From: Ylistrum balloti
Taxonomy: Eukaryota
Length of the DNA stretch: 64,000 nt
Assembly: GCF_031769215.1 (NCBI RefSeq)
Contig: NW_026782134.1
Coordinates: 124,001-188,000, forward strand
Direction: 5' to 3'
Part shown: positions 6,621 to 60,912 of the stretch, piece by piece
How positions within the stretch are numbered: position 1 is the stretch's first letter
Layout of the letters: the number at the start of each line of letters is the position of its first letter
Translations under genes and position numbers: made by a program
The notes under the pieces: generated by a model
Seen by the model: only the letters and a program-made list of their open reading frames with translations
What the model was told of the DNA's origin: nothing
Databases searched by the model: none

Positions 6621-6732
6621 GGAACGCCATTGACATTTGATTCCCACTGAAGTCGTATTTATAAGTTTCGTATATTAATCTACATGTGATATTGCATAAT
6701 AAGTTATCCAGGTAATTTGGTATTACATCTTA

Positions 6733-6850
6733 TCGATGCGCTCAACATTAGCTTACCTTTTCCCCATTTTGTCGATGCATTCAACATATTTTTACCTTTT
6801 CCCATTTTGTGGATGTACTCAATATATTTTTCCCTTTTTCCCCATTTTGT
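6733..6850. repeat. Degenerate 38-39 bp tandem repeat, about 3 copies
   Basis: Unit approximately TCGATGCATTCAACATATTTTTACCTTTTCCCCATTTTG starting at 6733, 6772 and 6810. Confidence 0.7.
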
Positions 6851-7680
6851 ACCCAAAAACCTCCCCAGGATCAGCTGTTCAGTAAATCATCATAAGAAGT
6901 TCAAAGGAGTGAAACGAGATTCCGCCGAACAAAATACAGCTTATAAAACAGCTTGGTCATTTATGCTTGCATACAGCTATAATGAAAATTAATTAGAATC
7001 TTCTAGAATGGTCCGAGATTCGTTGATGATAATGAAATTATGATTAATTGCATTTTGATAAGAAACAATCATATCTAAAATGCTTTATTTTTATAACTCT
7101 AATATTTGGCTGATATAACCGTAATCAGGAAATTTGTGGGAGAGTGCTCAGCAAGCCGTAGATGTATAAGTTAGTTTTAATATAATGGTTATGATTACAT
7201 ATTCAGTTCAAGGAACCCCCAGGACGCAGGTGAGCGGACTATCAGACGGCGCAGACGTAGATTTTTGGAACGTCTTCGAATCATACACAAATGGACCAAT
7301 TAAAGAAGTAGTTGGAGGTAAAACCAAGTAAAATTAAGGCACGGTGTTAGAGTATGTAAAGGGCAGGAACGGCTAGGAAGGATAAGTGTCGGAGGTCGAG
7401 TCTAAAGGAGAGAAGAAGAAATATTTGTTGTGGATAACTTGCAAGAAGACCTAGGCAGTAGGAGCTTGAAATTTATGGATCTATAGGTAATTATTTTGAA
7501 TTGATAAATCTAATAATAAATATAGAGTCATATCAAATAATTTGTTACACCTATCGCATTATAAGTGGATTAAATTTTGGTAAGCTATTGTTGTGCTAAT
7601 TATAGATATGTTTTTGTGAAATCGTCAACCTTATTTTGGACACTGAGTCGAAATTCGAATATGTCGGATTATTTTCCACT

Positions 7681-7712
7681 GTCCCATGGATTTTGAGATA
7701 ACGAATTTCGAC
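7681..7712. mobile_element. Isolated terminus of a MITE related to the 8404-9234 element
   Basis: GTCCCATGGATTTTGAGATAACGAATTTCGAC resembles the reverse complement of the left end of the 8404 element (GTCCCATCGACTTCGAGTTAACGAGGTTTGAC). Confidence 0.5.
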
Positions 7713-8403
7713 GGAAGTGTTGAATGTGGGAAAAATGCTGATAAAAACATGAAAACTTTCCACACTTGTTTGACCCTCGACGTTAAGGCGAAGTTACAGC
7801 TAACCGCTCACTTCCTGGGGTGAGCAAGTTTCTAGTTTTCACTCTAATAAATACAGTAAAAAGCACTTATTTGTCCTTTGACCTTAAGGTAAAGCTCACA
7901 CTGACCCACTTATCTTGTGATGCCCGGTACATTGGGTTGAGGTATATGATGCAAATTTCATTAATTAATTTTCAATGCTTCAAAAGTATTCTGGACAAGG
8001 TTGTATTAGAACACAAATAATTTTGCCCCTCCCCTCTTCAATCGAAGGACTTGGTTTTAAACTAAAGTTGACGTTACTTCATTATATTCTTTAACACCAA
8101 AATGTGAAGACGAATTCAATATTTCATATTTTGCAGAAGCAACATGTAAGCCTGGGAACAATTAGTTCCCCTCTGGGGACATCCATACCATAGTTCGGCA
8201 TACTAGAGGGACTACTATAACCCTGTAATATGGCTGACAAAGTTGACAATTATTTTGTTGATTTGTGGATTTAATTCACTGGTGGATTGATAGTGTTCCT
8301 TTCTAACTATATATGTCCGTTTAAATCGGGAATGTGAAATGAGGCGTACAATTTCTATAAGAATATTAGTAGATTCTTATGTGAAATTTAAATATCTAAA
8401 ATA

Positions 8404-9234
8404 CAGTCAAACCTCGTTAACTCGAAGTCGATGGGACCACGAAAATACTTCGAGTTATCCGAGTCTTCGAGATAGCCGAGTTCATGAGTTTTGGTGCAAA
8501 GATTTTTTATGTTTCGAAACGGGTATGATTTCGGTGAGAAACACCCCTGCTTTTATCCCTATGTGACACTCATGACATCTCCTCACTAATTCTGCCCTAA
8601 GTAATTCGACGCTAATTAAATAATTGTTTCACTCATTTGTCGGTTTAATTGAGCACAGGTGACCGTTTCATGCGTACTCCTGTAAAAACATTAAGCCTAG
8701 TACCGGGCCAGTGTTGTGATTGTTTTCTATAGCTTAGTTCCGCTTCACTGAGTGTATACACAGGTCGGTGTTTGTTAATGCTGACAGACACGTAAATTAC
8801 GCAATGTGAGTAGAACTTCACTTTTTATCGCCGATATCTATCAATTATAAGATCTAACGGTTACCTTTTATCATTCAATTAAATAACAATAAACACTTTT
8901 CTAAAACATGAATATTGTTAATTACAGTATTGTTCATTAATATTCACTTGTAAAGCCTATTGTCGGTAAAATTGCAAAACGGCGTAGCGCATCAGCAATG
9001 TAATTGACCGGCACAAAATTTATACTTCGAGTTTTCCGATCATATTCAGTATATGTTTTGTTGTTGGGACCAAATTTTTACTTCGAATTAACAGAGTTTT
9101 TCGAGTTTTCCGAATTCGAGTTTTCCGAGTTTTGATTACTAGAATAAAGAGAAGATTTTGCCGGGACCGACAAAGTGCTTCGAGTTAAACGGGGTCTTCG
9201 AGTTTTCCGAGTTCGAGTTAACGAAGTTCGACTG
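8404..9234. mobile_element. Non-autonomous Tc1/mariner-pogo-type MITE, 831 bp, TA target-site duplication
   Basis: Left end CAGTCAAACCTCGTTAACTCGAA and right end TTCGAGTTAACGAAGTTCGACTG are inverted repeats (21/23 match). Flanked by TA at 8402-8403 and 9235-9236. Subterminal TTCGAG-rich repeats; no transposase ORF. Confidence 0.88.
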
Positions 9235-12200
9235 TAATATTACTTTAATTCCTCGCCACAAATTATTCATTAATACTCCACACTTATTTTGTGTAAAGTT
9301 TGTGGAGTAACGATACTACTTTATTGTTGAGAACATATAATCCTTCTAAATACTGCTATTAAATAGTCTTTTCTGTCTGATATGTAGATTAAAGCGTCTC
9401 AGTAATTCGACCTAGTCGTTTCAGAAAACATTTCTCTATACAAAACAATGCCGTCACACTTGCTATCTCCTTACGTATGTTATGCATATAAATAGTTTAG
9501 CTTACTTTGAAGAATATAAACTTTAACCTAGCAAGCATTCAGATAAAATTTTACTTTTTTTACTAGACGACATTGTCCTGTCAAGGACAAGCTTGAGTAT
9601 GTTAGAAGATACCCACAACTTGTGACATGTGCAGTATGTTTACCTTACAGAAACAAGATTACTTTAAATCAATTTAACTTAATCTACTTTATAGCTACAA
9701 CTTACTTTTTAACAGTGTATAATGAATATCATGCACAAATCCACACATAGTTAAATTTCACTATTAAAATAGCCATGGGGGTTGGACAAAAGTGGACTTA
9801 ATATCTGAGTGTTCTTAATAACGAAATGACTAAAACTCCCCTACGGCCACGTTTGTCCATTTTTCATAGCATTGTCTGGAAGGCATTGTTTCAATCCATT
9901 TTAAAGGTACATGAACACGAAATAGATCAGAGCAAGTTGTTCCGAATGACAAATCATTCGAGGGGTTCAAGGGCGTTAGTTGCTATATGTTGCTATCAGC
10001 CATTGGTGCAAAGCACTACAGGGACCTTTCACTTCCGTGTCTGTTGGGCTTCCTATAACGTTCAACACGACGTTATTCTTGGAAAGCAAGTTTGACAACT
10101 ATATCGCCTACTGTTCTGACATCAAGCAAAGTAGAAGACACACACGGTAACTTTGTTCGGTTTTCTGATTGGTCAGTGACATTCAATGTAAAATTAGTCT
10201 GAGCGACTTATTTTTTTTTTTAATTTTAATTTTTTTTAATTTTTATTTTTTCCCCTTTTTTATAATTTAATTGCGAAACAGTGAGGTGGCCTTAATGTTT
10301 AAGCTTACAATACAAAAACACATAGAAGACATCTTGGGACTGAAATGGTGGCGGCGAGATGTTTTTGATTTTGAGGTGCTTTTTTAAGCCAGTATTTTCT
10401 AAATGTCACAAAGCCCTTTGATCACTTAGACATTTTCATACTGATAAGAAAGTACACATTTCACAGGCATGTTGTTTATTTACCATGTCATGTTGTACCG
10501 AACTCAATATATTGAAGTTTTATGGCGACATTGTAAGAATTAAGGATTTATTCTTGAATAATGAAGTTACTTTGTGAGATAAGGAGTGATTTTATAATAT
10601 GGGTACTTTACATTGGAGTTTAAGGTCTCTGTTTTTAAAGGTTTTCGTTAATTATTTCAGCTTTGTAATTGTTTTTCTCCAGATTTGCTTTTGGTATCTC
10701 ATGCAAATCAACAACATAAAGTGAACAGCTATGTCCATTCTTTTGTTTTGTCTTCTTACATTAACTCAGGAATTTAAGTGTTTTCAGAGTTGTTTTTTGC
10801 ATTCACGATCCAAATAACCCGTGCTTTCGGAACTTTATTTTTCGAATCAGAGAGTTTAGCATAGACGTTAATTCCAACATAGATTTCTCAGAACCGTCAG
10901 TTACTACAGATGCATTATAGCGTGAATGAAAGTGACTTTGGGCAATTGCCTATTTTATTAAACGTTGCGATCTGATCATCAGACGAACGCCAATTTGCAT
11001 ATTAAAAAAGTTTTCTTCTAAGCTATTGTTGCCCTGATATTATTTAACTTATTACAAAACCATAAATAAAAAGATAACAAAAATAAAATCTTTTATTAAA
11101 AACAATATGTCTATGACTTTAGATTATCTGTTTTGTTTTGTCTTTTTGTTTTTTTTTTGGTTTTGAATTTTTTTTCCAAGTTGCAGTAGTAAGAAATTGT
11201 TTTTACCTGAACATGTACAAGTATAGATAAAAAGACGATTGTTGTATTGGTTGTAATTGGTTGTAAACTGAATTCCAACATTAGGTATGTTTGATAAGTG
11301 ATCAAAGTGAAATACCGGAAGGCACACAATTCATTTTCATTTTACTATATATCTTTTTCAATATAATTAAATATTTCATCCTTAAATAAACATTTTGTTA
11401 AATGTTCAAACAAATTTACTTGTGTTTTAAATTAGGAACATCTTAGGGATATTGAAAAATATGATTGGTCTGAGCTTTACCCATGTTCTATGTTTCATTT
11501 TATGGAATTGGAATTGAATTATTTTTAACATGATAAAAAAACTATGCATACCTGTGATAGCGTATTACTCTTCATCCCTGTGTATTTTTTCAAGTTCCTA
11601 TATAGTTTCCTAAAATGTCAATGAATAAAGTTAAGAATAAATGCTAGCCTCAAAGTTATTGATTTGTTTGTCACTGTTATCATAATAGGATATCATGGTC
11701 TACATCTAAGTAAATATCGCCTTAAAGAATTACATTCACACGTACGCACATATGTTGACATAAGAAATGTCAAATGTTAGCCCGGGGCTCATATTACTGC
11801 TGTCTTCAAACTGCTTCGGGGGAAAATAGCATAAGAAATTCAGATATCAATTAAATTGAACCGACGTATAAATGACTTTTTAACACATTCATTGACATGG
11901 CCAAAAGTTAAAAAAGAGAACAACAAACAAGCACAAGAGTTCGAAAAAACTTAAAGAATGACAACACATTTTTTTTTATTAGAAAAGCGTCATAATTTTC
12001 CATCTCTCAGAGTTACTTCCCTTCCCTTTCACTCTATCAGAGAGTTTAGTGATTTCCTTGGCAGCCGAGGAAGGACGTGAGTACCTCAGGTATGTGATTT
12101 TCTCGGAGCATCCCTAATCGATAATGTAATTGACCTATAGCCAAAATGATTAATATTGAAGCGAAGGGGAAAATATTCACGTATTGATGGTTATCAGGCT

Positions 12201-14726: not shown

Positions 14727-17700
14727 ATGGCTGTTAATTTTGACGAGACATTGAGGAAGATTGGCGAGTTTGGTCCGTACCAAAGACGTGTATATTTCCT
14801 ATTGTGTCTACTGGTCGTTTTTATCGGCTTGTCAGATGTAGTCAACGCATTCCTCCTTTTTACGCCGAATTACAGGTAAAAATCAATGTTTCCTGTTATC
14901 TCAATTCTTTAAAACTGCTTGATGTATAAGATCAAATGGAGCGGATACACTGGCAGCGTCAGATCCGCTATTTGTAACGAACTTTGGTTAATTATCTCAT
15001 CTGTATTGCTTTTATGTCCAAAGAGTGGGTTGGAATGTTTGTTGGATGTATGAGGATATAATATCTGGGAAGTAACAATTAAATTGTACACCGTCAACCA
15101 AAAATATCTGTCCAGTTGTAGAGTGTTACTAGCCCTATTCACAAAATATATACAATTACATAACATTAGGGAATGAAAAGATGGGGAAATAGTAGGCCTG
15201 ACTGTAAGCCTGCGCCACATAACAGAAAATGATCTAAAAACAACAAACTGGAAGGATTATGCTTACAATTATAACAAACAACTGACCGGAGAGATAACGC
15301 ACACAATTATAGGAAACCACATACCGGGGAAAATAAAACTAACAAATATAGGAAACCACATACCGGGGAAAATAAAACTCACAAATATAGGAAACCACAT
15401 ACCGGGGAAAATAAAACTCACAAATATTGGAAACCACATACCGGGGAAAATAAAACTCACAAATATAGGAAACCACGTACCGGGGAAAATAAAACTCACA
15501 AATGACAAACGCGTATCGGCAAAGATACAGCTCACAAATATGACAAACGCGTATCAATACAGCTCATAAAATATAGGAAACCACGTACCGGGGAAAATAA
15601 AACTCACAAATATAGGAAACCACGTACCGAGGAAAATAAAACTCACAAATATAGGAAACCACGTACCGAGGAAAATAAAACTCACAAATATAGGAAACCA
15701 CGTACCGGGGAAAATAAAACTCACAAATATAGGAAACCACGTACCGGGGAAAGTAAAACTCACAAATATAGGAAACAACTAACAGGAGAAGAAAAAGCTC
15801 ATAAATATGACAAACGCGTATCGGGAAAGATACAGCTCATAAATATGACAAACGCGTATCGGCAAAGATACAGCTCACAAATATGACAAACGCGTATCGG
15901 GAAAGATACAGCTCATAAATATGACAAACGCGTATCGGGAAAGATACAGCTCACAAATATGACAAACGCGTATCGGCAAAGATACAGCTCACAAATATGA
16001 CAAACGCGTATCGGCAAAGATACAGCTCATAAATATGACAAACGCGTATCGGGAAAGATACAGCTCATAAATATGACAAACGCGTATCGGCAAAGATACA
16101 GCTCATAAATATGACAAACGCGTATCGGCAAAGATACAGCTCACAAATATGACAAACGCGTATCGGCAAAGATACAGCTCACAAATATGACAAACGCGTA
16201 TCGGCAAAGATACAGCTCACAAATATGACAAACGCGTATCGGCAAAGATACAGCTCACAAATATGACAAACGCGTATCGGCAAAGATACAGCTCACAAAT
16301 ATGACAAGCAACATACGGGAGAAAATTAAACTCACATACATTAAATCGTCTTTCTATTGCAGTCTAAAGCTGATCACAACAATCGGTAGTTCAAAAGTGT
16401 GTATTGTCCTATATTATAATTAATGAGGAATAAAGAGGGTTTTCTTATTGGACTTATAACCTTCAGAACTACATCAATTAATGGAGGTGTTCACTATGAT
16501 GTTAAGTCATGTAGTGATGAACAATCTCATACCCCATGACATTACCGAGCTGATCCAAATGGTTCTATTACAGTGTAAATGTATATAATGATATATGCTT
16601 ATGTATCATTATAATTTTCTAAATACACTCACCAGATGTTTTGGATTGAACGAGAATACCTTAGCTAACTTTACAAATGGAACAGTTGATAACGAGGAAC
16701 CGAAGTGCACACAAAGTCTGGAAATAATCAATTCGTCTGGACATGAAGAAAATACAGTCGATATCTGTACATCTTGGAAATATGATAAGTCAGTTTTCGT
16801 GGAGTCAATAGTCACTGAGGTATGTTGTTATAGGAATATAGAAAATTACACATGTATTATTTGTCAGACAAAAATCACCCTCACTGAGAAGAGACTAATA
16901 TAATAAATACATATCTTTTGAAATTCAATAACGATAATAAGATAATAAAAGCTATGTGTAAGGGAGTTGTAAGAGAGCATTGATCTCGTTAGCCTATCAT
17001 AAGTATCTTTAATCTCTAATCTGTGGTTGTAAGGATATCACACGTATATAAATATCTATGTCTTTATACATTCCAGAATGACCTCGTGTGTGATAATGAC
17101 CTTATCCCTACCTATATCCAAATGATAGTGTATGTAGGATCATTCTGTGGATCACTGGTTCAGGGAGTACTAGCGGACTGGTATGTTTATCTCAGTACAC
17201 ATAATAAAAGGATATGTACTGTAATGTGTTACATTTTCTCGATGAAACTTTCCTCTCGGTGATGACTTGATATCACAAGTCTTCTGATTCAGGAAAGATA
17301 ACTCGTACACGATTTCTCGGAATTTAATTTACGTTTTGCAAGTTTTATCGTATTTTCAGCGTTATTGCACATAAATGTAAACAGTGTATATGTTTTTCAG
17401 AAATATTTCGATGAATGTAAATAAACACAGAAAAAACATTTCGAAGTTTACATGTTTGTAGCGTTTAATTTATTTTCCATTTAGTATTAATCGTTCAAAT
17501 TATCATTTGCAATTTGACTAATAATTCCTTTCAGCATTGGAAGACAAAAGACGATATGTATCAGTCTAGTCATGTTTTTCCTTTCTGGAATGGCGTCAGC
17601 ATGGTCATCAAACTATTATGCGTTTACAGCCTTTCGATTTCTTCAAGGCTTTTCGTCAAGGGGAGTGTTCATCCCTACTTTTGTCTTAGGTGAGAGTAAA

Positions 17701-34600: not shown

Positions 34601-35066
34601 TGTAACCCTTCAGCTCTTTAGTGATGAGACGACTCAAAAGTTTGGTACTTCCATTTAATCAATAATTAAGAAAACCTACAACATAATAAATACGAAACTA
34701 AGGAACTTACTTTTACTTTCGTTGTAGGGACACATGATATACATTTAACTGTCGCGACAATATAAATTGGTTTGGAATATTTGATTATTTCCTAAGACTT
34801 ACCAGAGACCCATGAGGTACGTGGCACAGCTGTCTCTAAGAGTCTTGATCATGATCGTCCAGCAGTCAGATGGAAAGTGACTGGTAGTGGACGTGAACAG
34901 GGCTTTGGTATGTGTGCAGGGTGGCGTGAGTACGTAGTAAATACCCGTGCAACATACACTCTTCATACAAACTTCGTACTAGTTATGACACGAGCACAGG
35001 ACAGATATTATGTACGTAAACATAAATAGCTTAGTGCATTGAGTACATTGAGTAGACCCTGTTACA
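34601..35066 (-). repeat. 3' LTR of the Gypsy element (466 bp, TGTAAC...GTTACA)
   Basis: 6-bp terminal inverted repeat. By eye it differs from 42967-43429 by G/A at 34775 vs 43141, G/A at 34976 vs 43339, one 3-bp indel near 34935, and the terminal 3 nt. Confidence 0.98.
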
Positions 35067-35082
35067 TATTCCCCCACTTTCC
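35067..35082 (-). promoter_or_regulatory. Polypurine tract
   Basis: Minus strand GGAAAGTGGGGGAATA directly abuts the 3' LTR. Confidence 0.9.
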
Positions 35083-35598
35083 TGAATGGCACCCGACATT
35101 CCAATTGGTAAACCCACTATAACTTAGAGGGAATCCATAAATTAAGGAACTTGTACACAATTTTATCACATATAGGATAAATAGTGCATAGCATCATTGC
35201 ACTAGTAACAATGAAGTTCAGGTGAAGTTCAACTCCTGATACCAAATTAAGGCATCCATTATATTCAAAATATAATAACTAGTCTATTTTACAATAGAAA
35301 AGGAGATTTGGGGACAGGAGTGGATATAGCCAAATCGAATTGATCGATTGGACCCACTCCATTTCCTACCGGAAGTCAAACCTAATGATTGTCAAACAAA
35401 GTAAAACAATATACTAATAAAAACAACAAAGAACAGATAACGACATAACTCACTGCTGGAGTGGTTGGGGAACCCCCTACCTACTCGCAGGAGAACATTC
35501 TACATTGTCCCTTGCTATGCAAGCGCAAAAATAAAACAATATTCATTAAAAACTGGATAAACTGGATTTGAAACAGTAAAATCATATCACAGACTAGA

Positions 35599-38500
35599 TC
35601 ACACAAATATTTCATGTTCACCAGATCTCATCAGCTCTGCCTGTTGAGAATAGGCCCACTGACCATACCTATCAGGTGGTTTACGTGTCCTGGTGGACCT
35701 CCGGAATGGTGGGTCAGGTGACTGATCCCTGACGGGGTCTGCAACCTCGGGGTTACCCACATTAGAGGCAGAATGGTCATCGCTATGACCAGTATTTTCA
35801 GTAGCAGACTCTATATCAGAGCCACCGATTATTGTATCAGGTGCTACTGAAGTGGTACCAACACCAGGGGTTGTACTGGCTTCCACAGATAATGGTTCGG
35901 AAGCATCTATGGTCAGGTTACCTTGGGGCTTTCTCAGTGACTTTTTCCTGGAACTCCTGAGCCGTACTACAGGTTCCTCATCAGAATCTGACTCTGAAGA
36001 GTCTACAGATTCAGAGGTTTCGTCATGGTGAGTACGGGAAGGTGGCTTTGTAGACCTTGCCTTGCAGCAAGTCTCCACGATGGGAACATCTACATGTATA
36101 GCATTGAAGTACATCAACATATTCCGGTGTAAGGTACGTTTACGTCCCTTTCCGGTTTCTAACTGTACCTCATATACAGGAATATCACTATTGGGTATAC
36201 GGGTTACCCGATAGGGTTCCTGCTCCCATCTATCAGCCAACTTACTTTTCCCTTTAAGACCGACCTTTCTCACAAGGACACGGTCACCAACTTCAAGTTT
36301 GGTCTCACGGACTGACCTGTCATAACGACTTTTGTTGCGAGCAGATAATTTAGAGGCCTCAGTACTAGCAACCTTATAGGCATGTTTCATCCTATCACGA
36401 AGTTTACTCACGTATGAGGTGTGGTCTGCTGTACCTTGCTCACAGGGATCTGTTCCGAGGAAAGCGTCCACGGACAGGCGGGGATGCCAACCAAACATAA
36501 GAAAGTGAGGCGAGTATCCGGTGGCATCGCTTTTCGAAGCATTGTAGGCTTGGACCAGTGGAGCAACATAGGACTTCCAATCCGTTTTTTTTCTCCTCAA
36601 GGGTTGCGAGCATGCCCAGAAGGGTACGGTTGAAGCGCTCTGCAGCCCCATTTCCCATAGGATGGTAGGGAGTTGTTCTGGTTTTCTGAACTCCAGCGAT
36701 CTTACAGAGTTCACGGATAACTTTACTTTCAAAGTTACGACCCTGATCACTGTGGAGACGTTCAGGAAAACTGTAGAAGGCTATGAAGTTTTCATATAAC
36801 GCCTTTGCAGTTGTATGGGCCGTCTGATTGCGACATGGCACCGCCTGAGCGTACCTAGTAAAATGGTCAGTGATCACCAGAATGTTTTCACAACCACCTT
36901 TTGAGGGCTCCAATGTGAGGAAGTCAATACAGACCAACTTCATTGGCCGTGTGGATTGAATTGGAACCAGTTCAGCCTGAGGCTTCACCGGAGTCTTGCG
37001 TCTTATGCAGCGTCCACAGTTCTCAACTCTCTCGTCTACATCCTTCTCCATACCTGGCCAGTAAAACCTCTGTCTGGCTAACCAAAGGGTTTTCTCCTTC
37101 CCCTGATGACCGACATCATCATGGACTCCCTTAAGAGCCAGGGCATGGTATCGCTTTGGTAGCACCAGCTGTTTCACTGCCTGACCGTCTAGAGAAGCGG
37201 TTCTGTACAATACACCATTATGTAGACAAAATCTTTTCCAAGTCCTCATGAACTTTTGCACATATGGGGATTCCTGCTTGCGGTTTTTCCCCCTGGGATG
37301 AAAACCGGTTCTCTTGAGTTCTATAACCCTGGCAATATCTTCATCCTCTTGTTGTTGCTGCCGCCAATCAATTGAGCTCAGATCATCATCCGGGTTTCCA
37401 CCCTCATTGGCCAGATAAGAAGCTAACCCCACATGGTCTGTTACACTGTCAATCAGAGGTGCATCAACAACTGAGGACTGACATACTGCTTTGACAACGT
37501 CAGAGTTACAGAATGAGATGCGTGAGAGACCGTCTGCATCAGCATTATTCTTCCCAGCTCGGTATGTCAAGGTAAAGTTGTAGTTTGCTAGAGCGGCAAC
37601 CCACCGATGACTGGTGGCATCCAGTTTAGCTTTACTCAGCACATATGTAAGCGGATTATTATCTGTGACAACTTCGAAGGTATTACCATAGAGGTAATCA
37701 TGAAATTTATCAGTGATAGCCCACTTAAGTGCTAAAAACTCAAGCTTATGAGCTGGGTAATTGCGCTCACTTGGTCTAAGCCCTCGACTTGCATATGCAA
37801 TAACTCTCTTCTTACCTTCATGCGTCTGGTAGAGTACTGCTCCTAAACCAGTACTACTAGCATCAGTATGTAGTATAAAAGGTTTCGAGTAATCCGCATA
37901 GGCAAGTACGGGAGGACTAATAAGCTTCTCCTTCACAGAATCAAAGCACTCTGCTGAGCTTCGCCCCAGACCCATTTAGATTTTTGAGTCTGTTTTGACT
38001 TACCTGACTTGATCTTACCAGACTTTGCAGTCTTACTAGACTTAGAAGCCTCTTTAGTTAAGTCATGACCCTGCAGAAGCTTATTCAAGGGTTGTACTAT
38101 CTTAGCATAGTCTTTAACAAACCTTCGATAGTATCCACTAAATCCTAAAAACTGACGCAGCTCCTTTAAATTTGTAGGTGCTGGCCAAGACTTGACCGCA
38201 GATACCTTCTCTGGGTCTGTAGCTATACCTTGATCTGATATGACATGACCGAGATACGTTACTCTTGATTTGAGGAACTCACACTTGGACGGTTTGAGTT
38301 TCAAGCCATGTTGGATGAGTCTGGCGAATACTGATTCTAGTCTATCCAAGTGTTCGTCAAAGGTGCGCGAAAAGATTAGGATGTCATCAAGGAAGATGAG
38401 ACATTCCTTAAGATGCATATCTCCCATGCACTTTTCCATTAAGCGCTGGAAGGTAGCTGGGGCACAAGTAAGACCAAACCCCATTCTATTGGTTTCCCAG

Positions 38501-39837
38501 AATCCCAGGTTGCCAACAGAAAATGCAGTCTTTTCCTTATCGCTTTCCTCGACCTCAACCTGCCAGTAACCGGACCGGAGGTCTAACTTTGAAAAATAAC
38601 GGGCACCATTAAGGGTATCTACCGTGTCATCAAAGCGAGGAAGCATGTACGCATCTTTTCTTGTGCGTGAATTCAGCATACGGTAGTCGATGCAAAATCT
38701 AAGGCTCCCATCTTTTTTTCGTACAAGTACGACATTTGAAGAGAAGGGACTTGTAGATTCGCGTATCACGCCACCATCAAGCATTTCCTTGATGTGCTGT
38801 CGAACTTCTTCGTACATACCGGGTGGTATTTTACGATACGGCTGTTTAAATGGCCGCTCATCAAGAAGTTCGATCTTGTGTTTAACAACGTTCGTCGCAC
38901 CCAAGTCAAATTGGCTTTTGGAGAACGCTTGTTCCCAATTACCCAACACTTGCCGAACCCGTAACAACTGCTCTTCGGTGAGGTTTGTTTTGTCGATGTA
39001 ACAGCCAAGTTCTTCAGGCAATGACAACTTTTCTTCCCTAACAGTAGGGAGATCTGAGGCCAGATTATCGACTACTTTCACTTGTTGGACAGTACAAAGT
39101 ACAGTACGTAGACTCAACACAACTGGTTTAGCTGAGGTATTACACAGCTTAACCGGTACTTTAACATTAACTGAATTTTGTTTAAACTTCACCACACGAG
39201 GACAAACAGTATATCTAAGAGCAGAGTTATCCTGGTTCTCTGTGACTAGATCAGTAATATTTGGATCCAATCCTCGTGCTATACCGTTTAAAACAATAGT
39301 GGCATACGGAGCGATAGTAACAGGCTTTTTACTTAACATTCTCACTGCATACGAGCAAGAAACACTGTTTACTGCAGCTCTCCATTCATTAGGTAACAAC
39401 GAATCACCAATGGTAACCTCCTTAACTAGGCGGATAACATTAGTACCTAGTATAACAGGACATTTACTGTTGTAGTCAGTATCAGGCACAACCAGCATAA
39501 GCACATTAAACACTTGATTTGACATGAATGGTATTGTAATTTCACATTCAATATAGCCTAAGTAGTTCAAGTTAGAACCATTAGCTACTGTGACTTGTAA
39601 TCCAAGTGTCTCTAATTCCTTAAGTTCAGGTCTGTCATGTAAAGTTTTGTAAAATCTTTGTGACATAGTAGATACCATAGATCCACTGTCAATCAAGGCT
39701 TTGACCTTTTGACCTTCAACAAAAACTTGGCTCTCATTTGATACACCTAATAATCTATCTAATATTTCGTGACCTTGGCCTTTTGACTTTTGTGAAGTCT
39801 CTGCGTGGCCAGTGGCAGAGACTAGTCCAAGTTTTTT
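35599..39837 (-). CDS. pol: Gypsy pol (protease, RT, RNase H, integrase), split by two single-site frameshifts in homopolymers
   Basis: Protease ALIDSGS; RT FCIDYR, KLDLRSGYWQ, FLDD; RNase H LHTDAS, KLEFLAL, TDNNPL; integrase HDDVGH..CGRC, CIDF, HSDQG, GAAERFNR, EPYRV. The frame opens at 39837, right after TGA 39840-39838. Frameshifts at 37943-37945 and 36585-36592 join ORFs 37933-39696, 36440-37975 and 35599-36750. Confidence 0.95.
39776..39837 (-). promoter_or_regulatory. -1 programmed ribosomal frameshift signal between gag and pol
   Basis: Slippery heptamer A AAA AAC at 39837-39831, 7-nt spacer, and a 9-bp stem AGTCTCTGC/GCAGAGACT. Pol is in the -1 frame relative to gag. Confidence 0.9.
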
Positions 39838-41000
39838 TCACTATTCTTAGCCTTGTCTTTTTTATTCCAGCGGCCTCGAGACTTGTTATAACCACCGCGA
39901 CCTTGACCTTTGTTATGACCTGACCCTTGACCAGATTTCTTACCTTGACCTTGACCTGAGGACTGACCAAGTTTGTTTAAAATTTTATCAAGCTTACCCT
40001 GTATTTGGGAGCTAAGCTTGTCTTCCAAGTTTTTCAGTTTTTTATCAAACTGTTTTTCTATCTCAGCTATGGAAGCTGTTTGCTGGTCAGATTCAACACT
40101 AACTGAATGCTGGTGTCCTTTCTTACCATGACTAGAACCAGAAGAAGTATTAGAGATATTTAACTCTTTCTCTACCAGCCGGATTTCTCTTAACAGTGTG
40201 TCAAAACTGGCTATTGCGTCATACTTATGACGAGTTTGGCTTTTTAGTTTGTCTGAACTTAACGAAGTCCAAAACTTATGACGTAATAGGTCATTTTTAG
40301 CCGACTTGTGCAATGAGCCATCTTCCACTGCAATCTGGAGTAAAGACTCCAATCTGCAACCAAATGCAGTTGCCGATTCACCGGACTTCTGTTTAGAATT
40401 TAAAAATTCTTGCATGATCATGCCATGCGTAGAAATGTCCTTAAAAAGAGAATCTAATTTATTTAAAATTTCATCAGGAGAAGCCTTCTCGCCCACAGTG
40501 AGTAAAATTCTCCGTGCTGTACCACGGAGAGATCTCCTAATTGCCTGTACAATACTGCCCTGAGATATATCTGGGTCCCTAAGCAGACATCTAATCTCAA
40601 AACGCCATTCAGCGTATGACACATCGGCTTTGAGAGGTGGTTCCTCCCCAGAAAATTGGGGTATTTTAGGAACATGGTGTGTACCATAGGTGACAGATGA
40701 ACTCGAGGCTGATGTGTGGTTGGGGTTTGCCAACTCCTCATAGGGAGTGGCCTGACTAGTACCCACAAATTTAAATTCATGTTTAACAGGATTGGGAGGC
40801 TTGGGTGTACTAGCCGGGGGTACAATTTTGTATTTTCCCAGCTTGGCTAAAGCCTCTATCATTTGTTCCTCAGTCATTGTGAGGTCACCCTCGTGTACAT
40901 CACCCTCCTCCTTCAAATCCTTATCCCCTATAGGGGCTTGATCCGTAGGAGTTTTAGCCTTAGGGATTTCTTTTGTAGGGGGTACTCCGTTAGCAGCCAT
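39822..41000 (-). CDS. gag: Gypsy gag, PNMA/Ma-like capsid, 392 aa, no CCHC knuckle
   Basis: ATG at 41000 (the ORF-track start at 41048 is TTG). IPQFSGEE..SYAEWRFEIRCLL and IRRSLRGTA resemble PNMA-type capsid motifs. Coiled-coil-like segment followed by a Gly/Gln/Lys/Arg-rich tail. Confidence 0.9.
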   Translation of the reverse strand: MAANGVPPTKEIPKAKTPTDQAPIGDKDLKEEGDVHEGDLTMTEEQMIEALAKLGKYKIVPPASTPKPPNPVKHEFKFVGTSQATPYEELANPNHTSASSSSVTYGTHHVPKIPQFSGEEPPLKADVSYAEWRFEIRCLLRDPDISQGSIVQAIRRSLRGTARRILLTVGEKASPDEILNKLDSLFKDISTHGMIMQEFLNSKQKSGESATAFGCRLESLLQIAVEDGSLHKSAKNDLLRHKFWTSLSSDKLKSQTRHKYDAIASFDTLLREIRLVEKELNISNTSSGSSHGKKGHQHSVSVESDQQTASIAEIEKQFDKKLKNLEDKLSSQIQGKLDKILNKLGQSSGQGQGKKSGQGSGHNKGQGRGGYNKSRGRWNKKDKAKNSEKNLD

Positions 41001-41233
41001 AACTACCAGGTATGTGATAATGAACAATAAAATAACACCAGTAAACAACTACCAGTGTATAATGTTACTACACAAGTAATGAAATACGGTAGAAGTAAGG
41101 AAGTGAATGAGCTACTGTTCAGTGCATTCATAATACAAATTGCATAATAAGAAAAACATACAATAGAAAATTCAGAACACTGTGGTTGGGGAGCCCCCTA
41201 CCTACAAGTGCACATGAATGTAAATAAATGATC

Positions 41234-41932
41234 TCAACAACAATCACTGAACACTTTGGTAACGAGTCGCTTCATCCAAAACCTTGCTAATACCGGTTTC
41301 GGGTGGATCCCATCTTTAAATAAAGAAAAATTAACACTAGGCTTGCGACCTGCTCGCTTATACTGGAGCAAATCACATTTAAAATTGAGTGAGTGCACAC
41401 CTTCCTTGATATATGCGTTCAAATACTCGATACGCCGTTCTAAAATCACATCAAGTTGTGCAAAAGATTCAGGGTTTGCATGGCCCTTGTAAGTATTCCA
41501 AATTTGAATGGAGTATGGTGGTATCTCCAAAAATACAAGTTTGACTGTTTTAAATTTAGAAACAAATGAAACAAATTTATCGATATTAAATTTTAAATAT
41601 GTAAAACATTCCTCATCAGTACTGTGACTCAAATCAATGAATGGACCAGTTTTTGTAGTAATATCACAAGTACCCAACCAAATGTAAAGTAAAATAGAAC
41701 CATGCTTGTGAACAATACCTGATAAATTTCTGGTAAGCCAATTATAGGTTTGATCAAATCGAGCACCAGCTTTACAATAAAAGTCAATTGAAAATCCGAA
41801 ATTTTCAATAATATCCAAATGAGGCCTTAAAGAAAATCCTTTGCTACTCGACACTAAAACTGGTTGGTATTTTAGTGAACCCGGTGCTTCCAAAGGCTTA
41901 TCAATAAACTGTTTAAGTTTACTCAAACTCAT
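41234..41932 (-). CDS. Element-borne 232-aa protein with SGNH/GDSL hydrolase-like motifs
   Basis: Intact ATG-to-TGA ORF inside the LTRs, same strand as gag-pol. Block I-like VLVSSSKG (Ser30), block II KAGA (Gly56), block III IWLGTCD (Cys89 in place of Asn), block V DGIH (Asp207/His210). The fold assignment is from motifs only. Confidence 0.8.
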   Translation of the reverse strand: MSLSKLKQFIDKPLEAPGSLKYQPVLVSSSKGFSLRPHLDIIENFGFSIDFYCKAGARFDQTYNWLTRNLSGIVHKHGSILLYIWLGTCDITTKTGPFIDLSHSTDEECFTYLKFNIDKFVSFVSKFKTVKLVFLEIPPYSIQIWNTYKGHANPESFAQLDVILERRIEYLNAYIKEGVHSLNFKCDLLQYKRAGRKPSVNFSLFKDGIHPKPVLARFWMKRLVTKVFSDCC

Positions 41933-42952
41933 TAATGAAATTAATATATGGTATAATATAAAAAGTTTTTACAGCACAACTGAACGAGTAGAACTTCAAA
42001 CTTTAAATCTATAATATCCTCCCAGCAAGATGTACTGAACACTTCAGTAATGAAATGCACTAGTAATGAAATAATGACCGTAATTCACATGGACAATCAC
42101 AAACAAATGACAAGACACTAATTACTCACTGTACCTTGATCTCTCATTCTGATGATTGCGAAGGTGGGGAAAAAGCGTGCAGGGAAACACAATAATGAAT
42201 ATAATGGCAGAGTCAACAGGTCCTATTGCTACACAGGTGTCCCTCACAGGTCCCTGGTACTTACAAACATCTTGCTTCTTTCACTTTTCCAGATGTACAA
42301 AATACATGCAGATATAGCCTACAATACAATTACATAAATTAGAAATAAATTCATGAAATTATACATTATCAAGGAGAAAATTGATGAAACTATGCGAAAT
42401 TCAGTAAAATTATAAAATGTCCAATGGAATGATTATTTGACTACAATTACCAGACTGATTACATATACATATAGAAATTCATTATATAGAGTCCTTTAAA
42501 ATTATTAGAAGCACATTTCAACAAATTTGACAATATCTAGTCCTTTAGTCTCAAAGAAACTTTAAAGATGAATGTTTTTCACAACAATGACGAATTAAAC
42601 AGCCTTCCGACGTCGAATCTACTCGAAGTTAGCAGTTTAGTCAAAGCACAAACACACACAGGTACATGTACACATTGACATCCCATGGCCTGGCCGGTAC
42701 AAATGTTAATTATTACCAGTAACCAAGAATTTTAAAATTCGGCTCACAAGCAGGCATCTAATTTTGGTTTTTACCACAATCCGTATAGGCACACAGCGCT
42801 TGACATCCTATTCTAGGTACATCTTGTACACCAATATTGCAACGTTAGCGTACACGCGTACGTGTGTCGCAGGTCGCACATATGGCCATCTTACGAGGCT
42901 ACTTCCCATACCATCCATTACAGTCTCTGGTTCCTAATTACAATGGAAATTT

Positions 42953-42965
42953 ACGTTGGGCGCCA
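42953..42965 (-). promoter_or_regulatory. Primer-binding site complementary to the 3' end of tRNA-Lys(CUU) (Lys1,2 type)
   Basis: Minus strand TGGCGCCCAACGT lies 1 nt inside the 5' LTR and equals the first 13 nt of the known Lys1,2 PBS TGGCGCCCAACGTGGGGC. Confidence 0.9.
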
Positions 42966-42966
42966 T

Positions 42967-43429
42967 TGTAACCCTTCAGCTCTTTAGTGATGAGACGACT
43001 CAAAAGTTTGGTACTTCCATTTAATCAATAATTAAGAAAACCTACAACATAATAAATACGAAACTAAGGAACTTACTTTTACTTTCGTTGTAGGGACACA
43101 TGATATACATTTAACTGTCGCGACAATATAAATTGGTTTGAAATATTTGATTATTTCCTAAGACTTACCAGAGACCCATGAGGTACGTGGCACAGCTGTC
43201 TCTAAGAGTCTTGATCATGATCGTCCAGCAGTCAGATGGAAAGTGACTGGTAGTGGACGTGAACAGGGCTTTGGTATGTGTGCAGGGTGGCGTGAGTACG
43301 TAAATACCCGTGCAACATACACTCTTCATACAAACTTCATACTAGTTATGACACGAGCACAGGACAGATATTATGTACGTAAACATAAATAGCTTAGTGC
43401 ATTGAGTACATTGAGTAGACCCTGTTTTC
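42967..43429 (-). repeat. 5' LTR of the Gypsy element (463 bp; outer end altered)
   Basis: Near-identical to 34601-35066. Ends CCCTGTTTTC on the + strand instead of CCCTGTTACA. Confidence 0.97.
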
Positions 43430-52210: not shown

Positions 52211-52435
52211 ATATTGCAAACGAATGTTGTTATATGTATAGAATAATATTCTATGTGTACCTTAGGCTTGAAGCAAACAAGGAATATATTGCAAACGAAT
52301 GTTGTTATATGTATAGAATAATATTCTATGTGTACCTTAGGCTTGAAGCAAACAAGGAATATATTGCAAACGAATGTTGTTATATGTATAGAATAATATT
52401 CTATGTGTACCTTAGGCTTGAAGCAAACAAGGAAT
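52211..52435. repeat. Perfect 75-bp tandem repeat, 3 copies
   Basis: Unit ATATTGCAAACGAATGTTGTTATATGTATAGAATAATATTCTATGTGTACCTTAGGCTTGAAGCAAACAAGGAAT at 52211, 52286 and 52361. Confidence 0.98.
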
Positions 52436-52945
52436 ACAAAATTTCAACGATAGAAGAAATTCAGTGAAACAGAAATACAGGAAATAAAACGAAAGAACTA
52501 ACCTGATGTGCTACACAAGGTGGTCGTCACTAATGTGTATAGATGCTAAAAATAGAATCTGAAAACCTCACCATAAGTGTTTGTTTACACAGGGACAATG
52601 AACAATTTACGGAATTTCCGGATATTGATAGGTCCTAAATATAGATTATCGGTATTATAATTGTTAACATTGACATTGACACGACAAATGGAGTTTTGTT
52701 TTATTTACCGAAAATCCCTGACTTAAATCCCCATATGCCTACAACTTCCTATTTTCGTAATTTTTAAATATCCGTCCGTTATATTTGAAAATACCTTCCT
52801 TTTAAACGGCAAAAGTTTAGAAAAAATAAGAAAGAAAGACAAAATGAAAAACAGGGGATATTCATGCATGAGAAAACAAAGAAAGAAAGAGCGGAGGAAC
52901 AGTAAAAATATTTAAATGTCGTGAATAACAAGTGAAATATTGTTT

Positions 52946-56884: not shown

Positions 56885-58371
56885 AACATGCATTGTCATT
56901 GGTCTGTGTTTGGTTATAGTAGCCAAATGTATTGAAATAGCATTTTGCATTTTTAGTTCCTTTCATTTGAATGTGTTCAGCTTGGCAGGCGCACGCTATG
57001 TAGGATAATATTACGTCTGAGGTATTTTCTGTGAATATTTTTGAGTGACTTTCTTTTGTTTGAGCTTCTCACCAGTGCCCATTATTTCTTGTTGGTGATT
57101 GAATAACAAGATAGATATAAACTCAGGGTTCTGGTGAAACATTTTCACAGCATGGTCCATATGTGTGATATTTTGTGATCTCAACCGGACAAATGACACG
57201 TGTGAAGTGTTATTGAATCGAGATATACAGTGTACGAAATGATAATGGATTAGACAGGACTTTTCGGCTGTACAATAACAGTATGAACACCAGGTTGGAA
57301 AATAGTGTGACAAAATTGCAACCAGATTATAACGAAAACATATCGAATAGGTAATCTTTTATACATCCATTAGTTAGTTACAATGTCATAACACGTTAAA
57401 TTCGATTCGGAGTCTCGTTGTTTTGTAATGGTTATTTTGATAAGATAAACTGATTCTGAATTCAAACGTCTTCAATTCAATAGTAGAAGTAAATACTCTT
57501 TGTATATCGACGCGTCTTAGAATGCATTACCAAAATTGTGAATTTCATGACCCATGGGTCGCACAGTTCCCCGTTTTCTCTAAGTCTCAAGTCTATTATG
57601 ATTTTGACAACTTCAGGGTCTTACATTTTCTCCGCAGACCGCAACTGATGTCATGCATAGTTTACATTTGTCCTAGTATACAATTTAGTTGAAGTCATCT
57701 TACTCTGTTAACCGGATGGTTTTATGACATTAGTTTTAAGAACAATGTAAGCTTTTATAGAACCCAGCTGATCGTTAAGGCCCGTGGTTTCTTGTTGGAA
57801 ATGAGAAAATTATCGAATAATCATTTTAAGATAACATAAAAGGAACAAGAATAATAGAAAAGAAGAATAAAAAATAATAACATAATATAAGATCTGGAGG
57901 CATGATTTATTTTCGTTTGAGAAACAGACCTATCTAAGTAAGTGAATTATCAATTTTTACCTTTTTTCTCTACAGGTCAAAATATGTCAACGACATCAAA
58001 CGTTTGTATAAGGAAATTATTTGACAACGGATCAACAAACTCAGAGCTGAAGGATCTGAATGGAGATCCGTTAAGGACAAAATGTGTCAAAAGGTATCAA
58101 AGATTGATATCTTATCGAAAGTAAAATATTTGTTCAATGCGCGTTGCCTTTGAATCATAGGGCATAAACATCGCTTGCATTTCTTAAAAGTGCTTCTCTC
58201 TGCATTTCTCTGTATTAACTTGTCATCTGAAAAATGACCACAAATTAACTTCTAGTAATCAAAACTTCCTTTGCCTAATTATATGGAATCTTTTAACGAA
58301 CTAAAGAAATATTTATTATGTAAATCACACTGACTGGATAATATTTCCTGGTTGCGACAAATAAGATAATC

Positions 58372-60912
58372 ATGGATGTCTTCCCAGCCAGTCTAACACT
58401 TTACTTTGAAAATGCAGAGAACGGGGACGAATCGCTACCCATGAATATTGAATGGTTGCGGTTGCAGTCATTTGCATCTGTTCGCAAAATAAATGTTCGA
58501 CCAATACAATTGGCGAGGGCTGGATTTTTTCATACAGGTGCCTCTGATGAGGTACGGTGCTTTTCTTGTGGTGCCCGACGATCTGGTTGGAAGATTGGAG
58601 ACAATCTTGATGAAATTCACAGACAAATCTCACCTTTCTGCAAACATGCGAATGATACAGACAATACAAATGTTGCCGTACCTCGAGAAACAGGAACAGG
58701 CTCTTCTTCAGGTCACCAGGAAACTCAAAAGACAAAACAAGAAACTCGTCCTGTGAAGGAAAATGGACTAAATACATGTTGTCATGGCTATAAGACAAAA
58801 AGGTTCGTAGGTGACAGGTTTCTAGAAAGAATGGAAACCCAGCACCAGCCCAAAATGCAAGCCCAAAATATGGCGACGAACACAGTTCATTCTTCAGTCA
58901 AACAAATCCCAAATGGGATGATCGCTCAACAAAAGTCAATCTCTCATGGTATCTCCGTGTCAGAATCCTCTACTGAACAAATACATCACTCAATGGTTTC
59001 CACTGTTTCATCTTCAGCAACTAACGGTCATTCGATATACAGGAGGTCATGTAAACGATCCGAAAGCAATTCAAACTTCATTATACCTGTTCAGAATGGA
59101 AATGGATCTTTTCCTGAACAAAGACGGTCTGAAAACGAAAGCAACGTTGCACATAATACAAACGAAACTTCCCAACCGAGCACATACATTAATCCGCTCT
59201 CAAATCACCCCATTCAAGATACAGCAAATCCAACATGCACTGTCAGCGCTGATTCTTGCCCCGTTGGTGCTTCAGTAGTCCAGAGGTTATCTCCACTCGG
59301 TGTTAACTTCGAAAAACCGAAGTACCCAGTATATGCAGTATTGACTGTGAGGATAAGTTCCTTCAGTGGTTGGTCAGGTTCACAGACACCAAAACTGATG
59401 GCTGAGGCAGGTTTTGTGTACGCAGGATACACAGATTATACCAGGTGTTTTTTCTGTGGAGGAGGACTTAAAAACTGGGAGGATGGGGATGATCCATGGA
59501 TTGAGCATGCGCGATGGTTTCCAAAATGCGTTTACTTACGACAAAACAAGGGAGTCGTTTTCATACAGCTGGTACAAGAAACACTCGATACCGAAGAAAA
59601 GGTACGGATTCATGTAACTGCAATACATGTTTATTTATGCAAAATAATTAATGACAGAATTTTATGACACTCAATACAACCTGATCTGGCTTCTAACAGT
59701 TCGTTTCTGTTTGCCTTTAGTTATACCGATGGCTGATTTACGAATCAACCTTACTATTTTTATATAAATCAATGAGCTGTGTAAATGTGACTTGTTTTCC
59801 CAGAACAAAAACTTTATGTTTAAGCTTCAATCGAACCCACAATTTATCATAAAATAAAATATTCAACAGTATCTTATTTATGCTTATGCCCTCAAAGGTA
59901 CAAGACAACACCAAATTCAGCTTGGAAAAAGTAGCCTTGTTTGAGAAGGATATTGAGGAGCTGCCAGTTGTCCAGAGTGTTGTACAGCTAGGATACTCCC
60001 CAGAACGTGTCAAACAAGTCGTTAAGCAGCTATCGGCAAAAGGTACACATTTCTTTTAAACGGTACATGCTATCTGCCAATTATCTAATTCTCTACTGAT
60101 ATGTGATAAGAACTGCGGTGGGAGACTTTACTTAAAATACAAGTGTAGACAAGTGCGAGTGTTTATACCAAATTGTTCAGTAGATACATATATACCATTA
60201 ATAGTGTGCACTTTTTTGTGTATGTAGAAATCGCAGGTATTCACAGTACAGATGTTCTTCTAAAACTGATCACCGACAAAAGAAGCACAGATTCCTATGG
60301 GCATGGATCCACGATTAGTGGGGGCGTTGCGAGCACAAACACGACAGAAACTGAAGGTATGACAGGTCTTTATTCTTCTTAAACTATTTTTAGTAGTTTG
60401 TGTCTACTGAAAGTTTCTTTATTTACCACGGAAATCCTTTTCAATCAAAATGAGACTAAATTGAAAATCTAAATGTTCTGATTTTATTATTTCTATCAAT
60501 ATAATCCTTTCAATTCGATTTTGAGATAATATAATCTGTAGATATTGTTGGAGAAATAAAATACAAAACAATGAATAAAAAAACCGGCCATTATACTTGT
60601 TGACCTACTTTGTACATCTCAAAGTGTAAAGTCGGAGTACATGAATACAAAGGCAAATTTATGTCCATGTTTTACCTAGAAAAATACTTTTATGTTTATT
60701 CTTTTACAGAGTGCAAGAAACGACAGTTATTGGAAGAAAACCGCCGACTGAGAAGAAATAAAATGTGTAGAATATGTGAGGAGGAAGACGCCTCAATCAC
60801 GTTTCTCCCTTGCGCGCATCTCGTGTGTTGTGACGTATGCTCTCAAGCTATGAGACGCTGTCCTGTATGCAGGGTCACTATACAGGGCAGCATCAAAACC
60901 TGGCTCACGTGA
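58372..60912 (+). CDS. Inhibitor of apoptosis protein (BIR-BIR-UBA-RING), 4 coding exons, 568 aa
   Basis: Exons 58372-59601, 59898-60042, 60228-60356, 60710-60912; GT-AG, 1707 nt. BIR1 LARAGFF..VRCFSC..H..SPFC; BIR2 [38 protein letters not shown]; UBA-like [11 protein letters not shown]; C3HC4 [23 protein letters not shown] at the C-terminus. Confidence 0.93.

Follow-up and report, generated by a model that had tools for sequence, protein, structure and literature searches.

A 24-nt hairpin tip shared by Ty3/gypsy elements and LINEs, with a possible role as a docking site for host RNA routing

The cis-acting RNA signals of retrotransposons are usually family-specific and read by the family's own proteins. 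Among the closest described systems, the Drosophila I, G2, and jockey retrotransposons have stem-loops in common that act as transport signals and set a precedent for the use of host transport (PMC6719617). Export elements have been described in the 3' untranslated regions (UTRs) of both long terminal repeat (LTR) elements and long interspersed nuclear elements (LINEs), including the constitutive transport element (CTE) of Mason-Pfizer monkey virus (MPMV), the musD transport element (MTE), and those of intracisternal A-particles (IAP) and LINE-1 (PMC4588558). Coding modules are shared as well: open reading frames (ORFs) for GDSL/SGNH esterases are common to several retroelement classes, such as bdelloid LTR elements, Athena, and CR1/L2/RTEX (PMC5408684). 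We describe a short hairpin present twice in a Ty3/gypsy element (34601–43426, minus strand; order LTR-SGNH-gag-pol-LTR) of Ylistrum balloti, within a stretch of 64,000 nt that was analyzed as a whole (contig NW_026782134.1 of assembly GCF_031769215.1, positions 124,001–188,000; hereafter the window), and trace it through other gypsy elements and several LINE families.

The 24-nt motif, its conservation and predicted structure

The original prediction, made from the letters of the window, had reported a 24-nt motif at two minus-strand sites of the element. Both copies were recovered there (Table 1), 28 nt past the stop of the SGNH ORF (41234) and 114 nt past the stop of pol (35599), identical at 23 of 24 positions and with a single loop base as the sole difference. 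With up to three mismatches allowed, the window contained two matches vs. none in 100 dinucleotide shuffles. Two further claims, that the flanks do not align and that U-rich RNA follows both copies, were borne out: the flanks were alike only at the level of shuffles (p = 0.52 upstream, 0.18 downstream), and the 60 nt 3' of each copy contained 52–53% U, compared to 36–43% in the other non-coding parts of the element. The isolated 24-mer folded into GGU/ACC pairs, an A.A mismatch, GGGG/CCCC pairs, and a 3-nt loop (−10.3 kcal/mol); the GU/AC closing pairs appeared only when the context was included in the prediction, above a longer lower stem whose sequence differed between the copies.

The poly(A) hexamers AAUAAA and AUUAAA were absent from the 234-nt and 536-nt non-coding stretches, and one was present in the LTR. 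An Rfam search over 9 kb returned four matches (E 0.59–9.2), all far under the gathering score and none significant; the sole match overlapping the motif was SprD (E 9.2). A sequence run (X1; contigs, possibly from the source sample) spans the element, and neither hairpin differed among the rows listed.

A related element from an independent record (L129, NSIT01000175.1; 75% SGNH identity to the window element) held the motif at both places, each copy being 23/24 identical to that in the window. Between the two elements, 21/57 fourfold-degenerate sites were identical in SGNH and 115/228 in pol, i.e., 37–50%, and the flanking non-coding DNA had an identity of 56–58% over the alignment length. 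Because 23/24 positions were kept at both sites while fourfold sites were only 37–50% identical, the comparison indicates that the 24-nt motif is under selection, and since the flanks of the window copies are unrelated, each copy has been kept separately. The change in the first L129 copy opens the lowest pair of the originally predicted stem. Among 19 SGNH loci from other collections, only L129 matched model R1; L137 was missed by this model and found by eye, and the other 17, many of them short or distant, had no clear match.

Across families, the 24-mer was predicted to form the conserved tip of an RNA hairpin of 50–75 nt. This tip consists of three base pairs, a mismatch (A.A or A.G), 3–4 G-C pairs, and a free loop of 3–6 nt; below it, a bulge on the 5' side leads into a long lower stem whose sequence varies. 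Read upward, the predicted order of pairs is the variable lower stem; G-C and U-A; the 5' bulge; G-C, then G-C, G-U, or A-U, then U-A; the mismatch; the G-C pairs; and the loop. In alignment A1 (15 rows), 80.9% of cells were paired and 15 cells were altered on both sides, and in alignment A3 (35 rows), 91.8% were paired; the pair counts were reached in 0/500 shuffles in either case and the covariation score of A3 in 1/500, the pair-count shuffles ignoring the relatedness of rows. Pair-keeping swaps included G-C to A-U (L083), G-C to G-U (L077, L078, L152b), G-C to U-A (L069b), and U-A to C-G (both L137 copies). These pair-preserving changes, together with the retention of both positions in L129, argue for a conserved cis-acting RNA structure, as had been proposed.

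The lower stem was assessed in 28 element copies by holding the core fixed and comparing the flanks, on which the search pattern made no selection, with their own shuffles. As a control, 24 of 32 motif matches from a virus collection were used, the rest being excluded for short flanks or duplication. Median z values were −2.65 for 19 gypsy copies and −2.95 for nine LINE or unassigned copies vs. 0.01 for the 24 phage matches, which share the core by chance (p = 2e-7), and values below −2 were obtained for 17/28 element copies vs. 2/24 phage matches. The sense strand was more stable than the antisense strand in 19/28 copies (p = 0.006). The SGNH family was absent from the virus collection searched, and the 32 motif matches in it behaved like chance.

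Look-alike hairpins with other letters and an A.R mismatch beneath a 4-bp stem were seen by eye after SGNH, unmatched by the models, at L135:1210–1260, L144:1165–1290 (two), L131:3160–3200, and L134:680–710. In the decayed copy L122:1767–2480, the post-SGNH hairpin region is now a tandem array.

Distribution among Ty3/gypsy elements and LINEs

A gypsy tree was built from 50 integrase segments (row L087 was too short and was excluded). All gypsy carriers fell in one well-supported clade of 19 rows, in which the motif was found by model or exact pattern in 14, vs. 0/31 rows outside the clade. Four of these 31 rows represent a distant SGNH-bearing gypsy lineage (L086, L112–L114), which gave zero motif matches. 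SGNH likewise lies 5' of gag in this lineage, and the 3' end of the L112 pol has a Cys/His-rich stretch that, by eye, resembles a PHD finger.

The position of the motif varied within the clade. One copy followed SGNH and one followed pol in the window element and L129; in L069, L072, L088, and L149, both copies were post-pol (in the 3' UTR) and none was post-SGNH; L077 and L078 had a single copy, post-SGNH, and none post-pol; and in L137 (MOXH01004201.1), both of the two copies were post-SGNH. Altogether, a post-SGNH copy was present in the window element, L129, L077, L078, L081, L083, L122, L137, and L159, and L213 had a copy before gag, where the SGNH part was undetected. Two copies per element, LINEs included, were counted in the window element, L129, L069, L072, L088, L149, L137, L152, and L224. 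The motif is position-independent within the element and, because its position is free and no poly(A) hexamer lies near the window copies, it defines no SGNH expression unit.

A pattern search of the genome gave 171 matches, vs. 34 for the reversed control. Forty loci were classified: seven belonged to the gypsy clade, 13 were LINEs with coding evidence, five belonged to a repeat with a LINE-like tail, five were unassigned, and 10 were chance-like. In all classified loci having coding evidence (20/20), the motif was in sense orientation. The LINE carriers have the motif in sense in the 3' UTR and are apurinic endonuclease-reverse transcriptase (APE-RT) LINEs of at least four unrelated families: L152 (two copies, 191 nt apart), L223/L224 (two), L153 (one, ahead of the poly(A) tail), L126 (one), and L210 (one and a degenerate second). 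Pfam detected endonuclease and RT in L152, L223, and L153, and endonuclease in L126; the RTs of the carriers shared 25–27% identity or nothing detectable. From hallmarks and not from a tree, we take these LINEs to be RTEX-like, CR1-like, and Tx1-like. SGNH was not found by profile or Pfam in the ORF1 proteins of L152 and L224, and a search of the ESM Atlas with L152 ORF1 gave sub-0.9 matches only. The motif is patchy among LINEs, being present in 0/40 3' ends of related LINEs (20 clusters).

The 3' UTR of the L224 family holds a duplicated copy (76–77% identity) of sequence from the 3' end of L126, an unrelated family, last codons included, and in the captured stem a C-G/U-A swap preserves the pair. 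Sequence identity thus indicates that at least one LINE gained the motif by capturing the 3' end of another LINE. The flanks of the second L152 copy match those of the L166/L210 family, which is unrelated to L152 (z = 6.9). Between gypsy and LINE elements, L069a and L153 have similar flanks (z = 4.1; 528 pairs compared), which is no more than suggestive.

L222–L229 (e.g., L224, sense 2851–9500) are a young full-length LINE family with copies that are 98–99% identical, and its ORF2 begins with what is presumably a 2A-like peptide. Stand-alone ORFs belonging to the gypsy SGNH family occur in other records (L130, L135, L142, L144), upstream of APE-type LINE genes in L135, L142, and L144, and ahead of a PHD-finger ORF in L130.

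Layout of the element in the window

Membership of Ty3/gypsy was indicated by the presence of two LTRs, a primer-binding site (PBS), and a polypurine tract (PPT), and by the confirmed pol order of protease, RT, RNase H, and integrase (Table 1). The initial bases of the 5' LTR are unlike those of the 3' LTR, and the target-site duplication is ambiguous. The PBS is presumably of the tRNA-Lys type. A splice-donor-like site is contained in the 5' LTR at ~43163–43169, and both SGNH and gag probably depend on spliced RNAs for their expression. In the window copy, two frameshifts interrupt pol, one near 37.95 kb and the other near 36.6 kb.

The extra ORF had been called SGNH. A Pfam search with it gave zero matches; the assignment was nevertheless upheld by a structure model (pLDDT 92.5) and by Foldseek, which returned 68 PDB matches with E ≤ 0.001, GDSL/SGNH esterases at the top. 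Residues S30, G56, D207, and H210 were invariant across 36 aligned proteins, and the Asn of block III is replaced by Cys89 in the same 36-row alignment.

Elsewhere in the window, tandem arrays unrelated to the element occupy 15188–16421 and 52211–52436 (units of 38–39 nt and 75 nt), and a frame of 441 codons is open at 58342–59667 (+). The host is a scallop-like bivalve, and one of its proteins shares 95% identity with a protein of Mizuhopecten.

Table 1. Parts of the Ty3/gypsy element in the window, and the host gene discussed as a candidate reader.
Feature	Position	Strand	Evidence or remark
5' LTR	42967..43426	-	98.9% identity with 3' LTR
PBS	42953..42965	-	sequence
Leader, ~1 kb, LTR to SGNH	41933-42967	-	donor-like site in LTR, several acceptor-like sites
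SGNH-hydrolase-fold ORF, 232 aa	41234..41932	-	structure model and alignment
Hairpin copy 1, predicted extended stem-loop, SGNH-gag interval	41170..41219	-	conserved 24-nt tip 41182-41205
gag ORF, PNMA-type capsid domain	39822..41000	-	ORF and domain match
pol (protease, RT, RNase H, integrase)	35599..39837	-	ORF and domain match
Hairpin copy 2, predicted extended stem-loop, 3' UTR	35435..35510	-	conserved 24-nt tip 35461-35484
PPT	35067..35083	-	sequence
3' LTR	34601..35066	-	98.9% identity with 5' LTR
Host Egalitarian-like gene	G000:C580:199901-202170; L240-L242	-	three WH_Egal domains

Possible function and relation to known systems

We give even chances to the reading that the hairpin is a portable site at which a host protein for RNA transport or export docks. 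Such a protein would route the element RNA by microtubule transport or nuclear export. It would read the helix with its mismatch and bulge and not the loop, because the stem letters are conserved and the loop letters free. A host protein is suggested as the reader because elements with unrelated Gag or ORF1 proteins (ORF1p), with or without SGNH, share the hairpin, and a routing signal on the full-length RNA would fit because the motif is position-independent and frequently doubled. Elements would gain the hairpin by capturing 3' pieces of one another, often retaining two copies.

Two readers were considered, either of which is possible though unlikely when taken by itself: a host Egalitarian (Egl)-like dynein adaptor and the NXF1-type export route. 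Fly Egl is described as tolerating C-G best as a replacement of a U-A pair and as requiring two elements per RNA, and the fly transport/localization sequence (TLS) encloses 12 nt between U and A (PMC13186709). In the hairpins described here, a U-A pair occupied the ED2-like site in 26/28 and C-G in the other two, with a 5' A following; the distance enclosed from U to A, compared with TLS numbering only, was 12–14 nt in 33/33. The protein of the host Egl-like gene (Table 1) retains the ED2 Ser/Gln and has a C-terminal stretch that aligns to the fly C-terminus, and molluscan Egl homologues of ~590 aa list no exonuclease domain either. A doubtful but concrete version of the reading is that this exonuclease-less molluscan Egalitarian recognizes the hairpin and couples the element RNA to dynein, by which the RNA would reach the oocyte nucleus or germ-line founder cells; if true, the hairpin would be the first defined RNA target of a lophotrochozoan Egl. 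An export element would be expected past the last ORF and before the 3' end, where copy 2 and most family and LINE copies lie and copy 1 does not.

Several observations weigh against a docking site for a host protein, and some of them against Egl in particular. Five clade members gave no significant match: L075, L138, and L143 had weak look-alikes only (model R2 gave E values of 1.4 and 0.28 or worse on L075 and L143, which were counted as negative), and L117 and L118 are incomplete. Doubling was common though not universal, with one copy in L077, L078, L082, L119, L126, and L153. The covariation is underlain by few independent compensatory events, in copies found by pattern the conservation of the core follows from the search itself, and lower stems were weak in some copies (first L129 copy, z = −0.43; L148, 0.01; L217, −0.31). 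Carriers among host-gene 3' UTRs numbered zero in the 40 classified loci of a genome that is unannotated. As to Egl, fly signals lack the strong letter conservation found here. In the fly signals, bulges on the 3' strand bend the RNA between its upper and lower helices, and another U-A site lies 8 bp below the first; here, the bulge was mainly on the 5' strand (19/28), net 3' bulges at steps 6–10 were counted 11 times over the 28 hairpins, and U-A was not enriched 8–9 pairs lower (6/27 at step 8, 5/27 at step 9). The host Egl-like protein has Ser/Gly instead of His31/Cys35 in ED1, the residues by which the lower U-A site is read, and no exonuclease module (ExoHD-XAD), and no exonuclease family match was found on its contig. 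Since the ED1 His/Cys and the exonuclease module are lacking, the rules of the host Egl may differ from those of the fly protein.

Among the alternatives, a stability or translation element that shields the RNA 3' of a stop codon via a host protein, e.g., from nonsense-mediated decay, with no RNA movement, is unlikely but survives best. Every placed copy lies 28 to ~400 nt past a stop codon and is followed by a U-rich stretch, and a further 6 kb of RNA extends past the SGNH stop; however, L069, L072, L082, and L149 are SGNH-first yet have no post-SGNH copy, L077 and L078 have none post-pol, and a post-stop location is common to any UTR element.

Quite unlikely is a reader encoded by the elements themselves (SGNH, Gag, or ORF1p), with the hairpin as a signal for packaging or ribonucleoprotein (RNP) assembly and the LINEs borrowing gypsy SGNH in trans or carrying the motif as passengers. 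Within gypsy, the motif is restricted to one clade, every complete member of which carries SGNH; LINEs of other records have the same SGNH family 5' of ORF1, followed in some cases by look-alike hairpins with an A.R mismatch (L135, L144); and retroelement esterases have been proposed to act in RNP assembly (PMC5408684). Yet the distant SGNH lineage (L086, L112–L114) is without the motif, and pairing survives substitutions in carrier LINEs whose ORF1 is SGNH-free by profile and Pfam and whose proteins share 25–27% RT identity or none detectable.

A role at the DNA level, either as an NF-kB-like palindromic factor site or as an extra PPT for plus-strand priming, is very unlikely. Cores fitting the kB consensus in either orientation (16/33) are balanced by 17/33 that do not fit, and the orientation is always sense. 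The 5' arm is purine-rich like the PPT of the element, and multiple PPTs are known in Sireviruses (PMC2829016); a PPT, however, would have no need of the 3' arm, and the G-U swaps, the length and variability of the lower stems, and the greater stability of the sense strand are signatures of RNA. LINEs use no PPT.

Ribozymes are frequent in retroelements, and hairpins of 50–75 nt with conserved non-canonical positions could be part of a small self-cleaving ribozyme or a substrate of a Dicer- or Drosha-type nuclease. This is highly improbable given that Rfam gave no match and that there is neither a conserved loop nor a pseudoknot partner. Other identities were tried and rejected: an HDV-like (hepatitis delta virus) fold, in which the P3 pairing was broken in several copies by eye; a Musashi-type reading of UAG, as L069b has no UAG; and a selenocysteine insertion sequence (SECIS) or readthrough role, as the stops vary (TGA, TAG, TAA).

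The original prediction had favored a cis-acting RNA element (for 3'-end formation, stability, export, packaging, or splicing control) making SGNH a self-contained expression unit, or else a footprint of 3' UTR duplication. The former, taken as a 3'-end or splicing signal for such a unit, is now most improbable: it would agree with the post-SGNH copies listed above, with L213 counted by its place before gag, and with the acceptor-like pyrimidine-AG that overlaps the 5' foot of the hairpin in several such families, but at least five families have no post-SGNH copy (L069, L072, L088, and L149 among them), the distant SGNH lineage has none, SGNH-free LINEs carry the motif, and no poly(A) hexamer is nearby. 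The latter, a neutral trace of the captures and tandem duplications that do spread the motif, is largely refuted by unrelated flanks, by pair-preserving changes, and by the separate conservation of each copy at 23/24 against near-saturated fourfold sites (37–50%).

Returning to the docking-site reading, one 24-nt structured motif appears to be selected in a gypsy clade and in several unrelated LINE families of one animal group, moving by 3'-end capture, and such sharing across classes points to a host pathway worth hijacking. As a bait that is short and well defined, and for which compensatory variants exist in nature, the hairpin could help to find that pathway, and if it is read by the Egl-like protein, direct tests of RNA transport would become possible in the oocytes and embryos of molluscs. 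A literature search, with subscription papers and repeat databases outside its scope, found no description of the motif, to which no Rfam family corresponds, or of such signals in this phylum.

The closest likeness is to the signals read by Egl and Bicaudal-D (BicD), namely the K10 TLS, the I-factor localization signal (ILS), and the gurken localization signal (GLS) (PMC13186709, PMC6719617). They share with the hairpin a free loop, two helices split by a bulge, frequent presence as two per RNA, independence of position, use by retrotransposons, and a U-A pair that is about equally far from the loop (12 nt enclosed in TLS, 12–14 here) and is followed by a 5' A. The hairpin differs in its mostly 5'-strand bulge, the lack of a second U-A site, its G-C-rich conserved letters, and the A.R mismatch, in spanning LTR and non-LTR classes, and in facing a host Egl-like protein without the exonuclease module. 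The motif thus falls outside the fly Egl signal family as defined, although it may work like a member of it.

Export elements of the CTE and MTE type are likewise structured cis elements in the UTR past the last ORF of LTR elements and LINEs, and are read by host factors; they are large and multi-stemmed, most of ~500 nt, and no motif common to both classes is reported in the available part of the source (PMC4588558). Here, the hairpin has no Rfam match and also lies between ORFs. With the GDSL/SGNH retroelements, the window element shares an SGNH ORF in an LTR retrotransposon and the exchange of modules between classes. There, the esterase is ORF3, whereas here SGNH lies 5' of gag and the shared module is a non-coding RNA that does not track SGNH; the available part of that paper mentions no hairpin or stem-loop (PMC5408684). 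Sirevirus motifs are also short and kept in divergent non-coding regions of one lineage, including beside an extra ORF, but as far as described they are DNA-like repeats and PPT arrays of one copia genus (PMC2829016), in contrast to a base-paired hairpin found across classes. Shared SGNH ORFs and non-coding motifs of a single lineage were thus known, and what is new is a letter-defined hairpin that LTR and non-LTR elements have in common and that spreads by capture.

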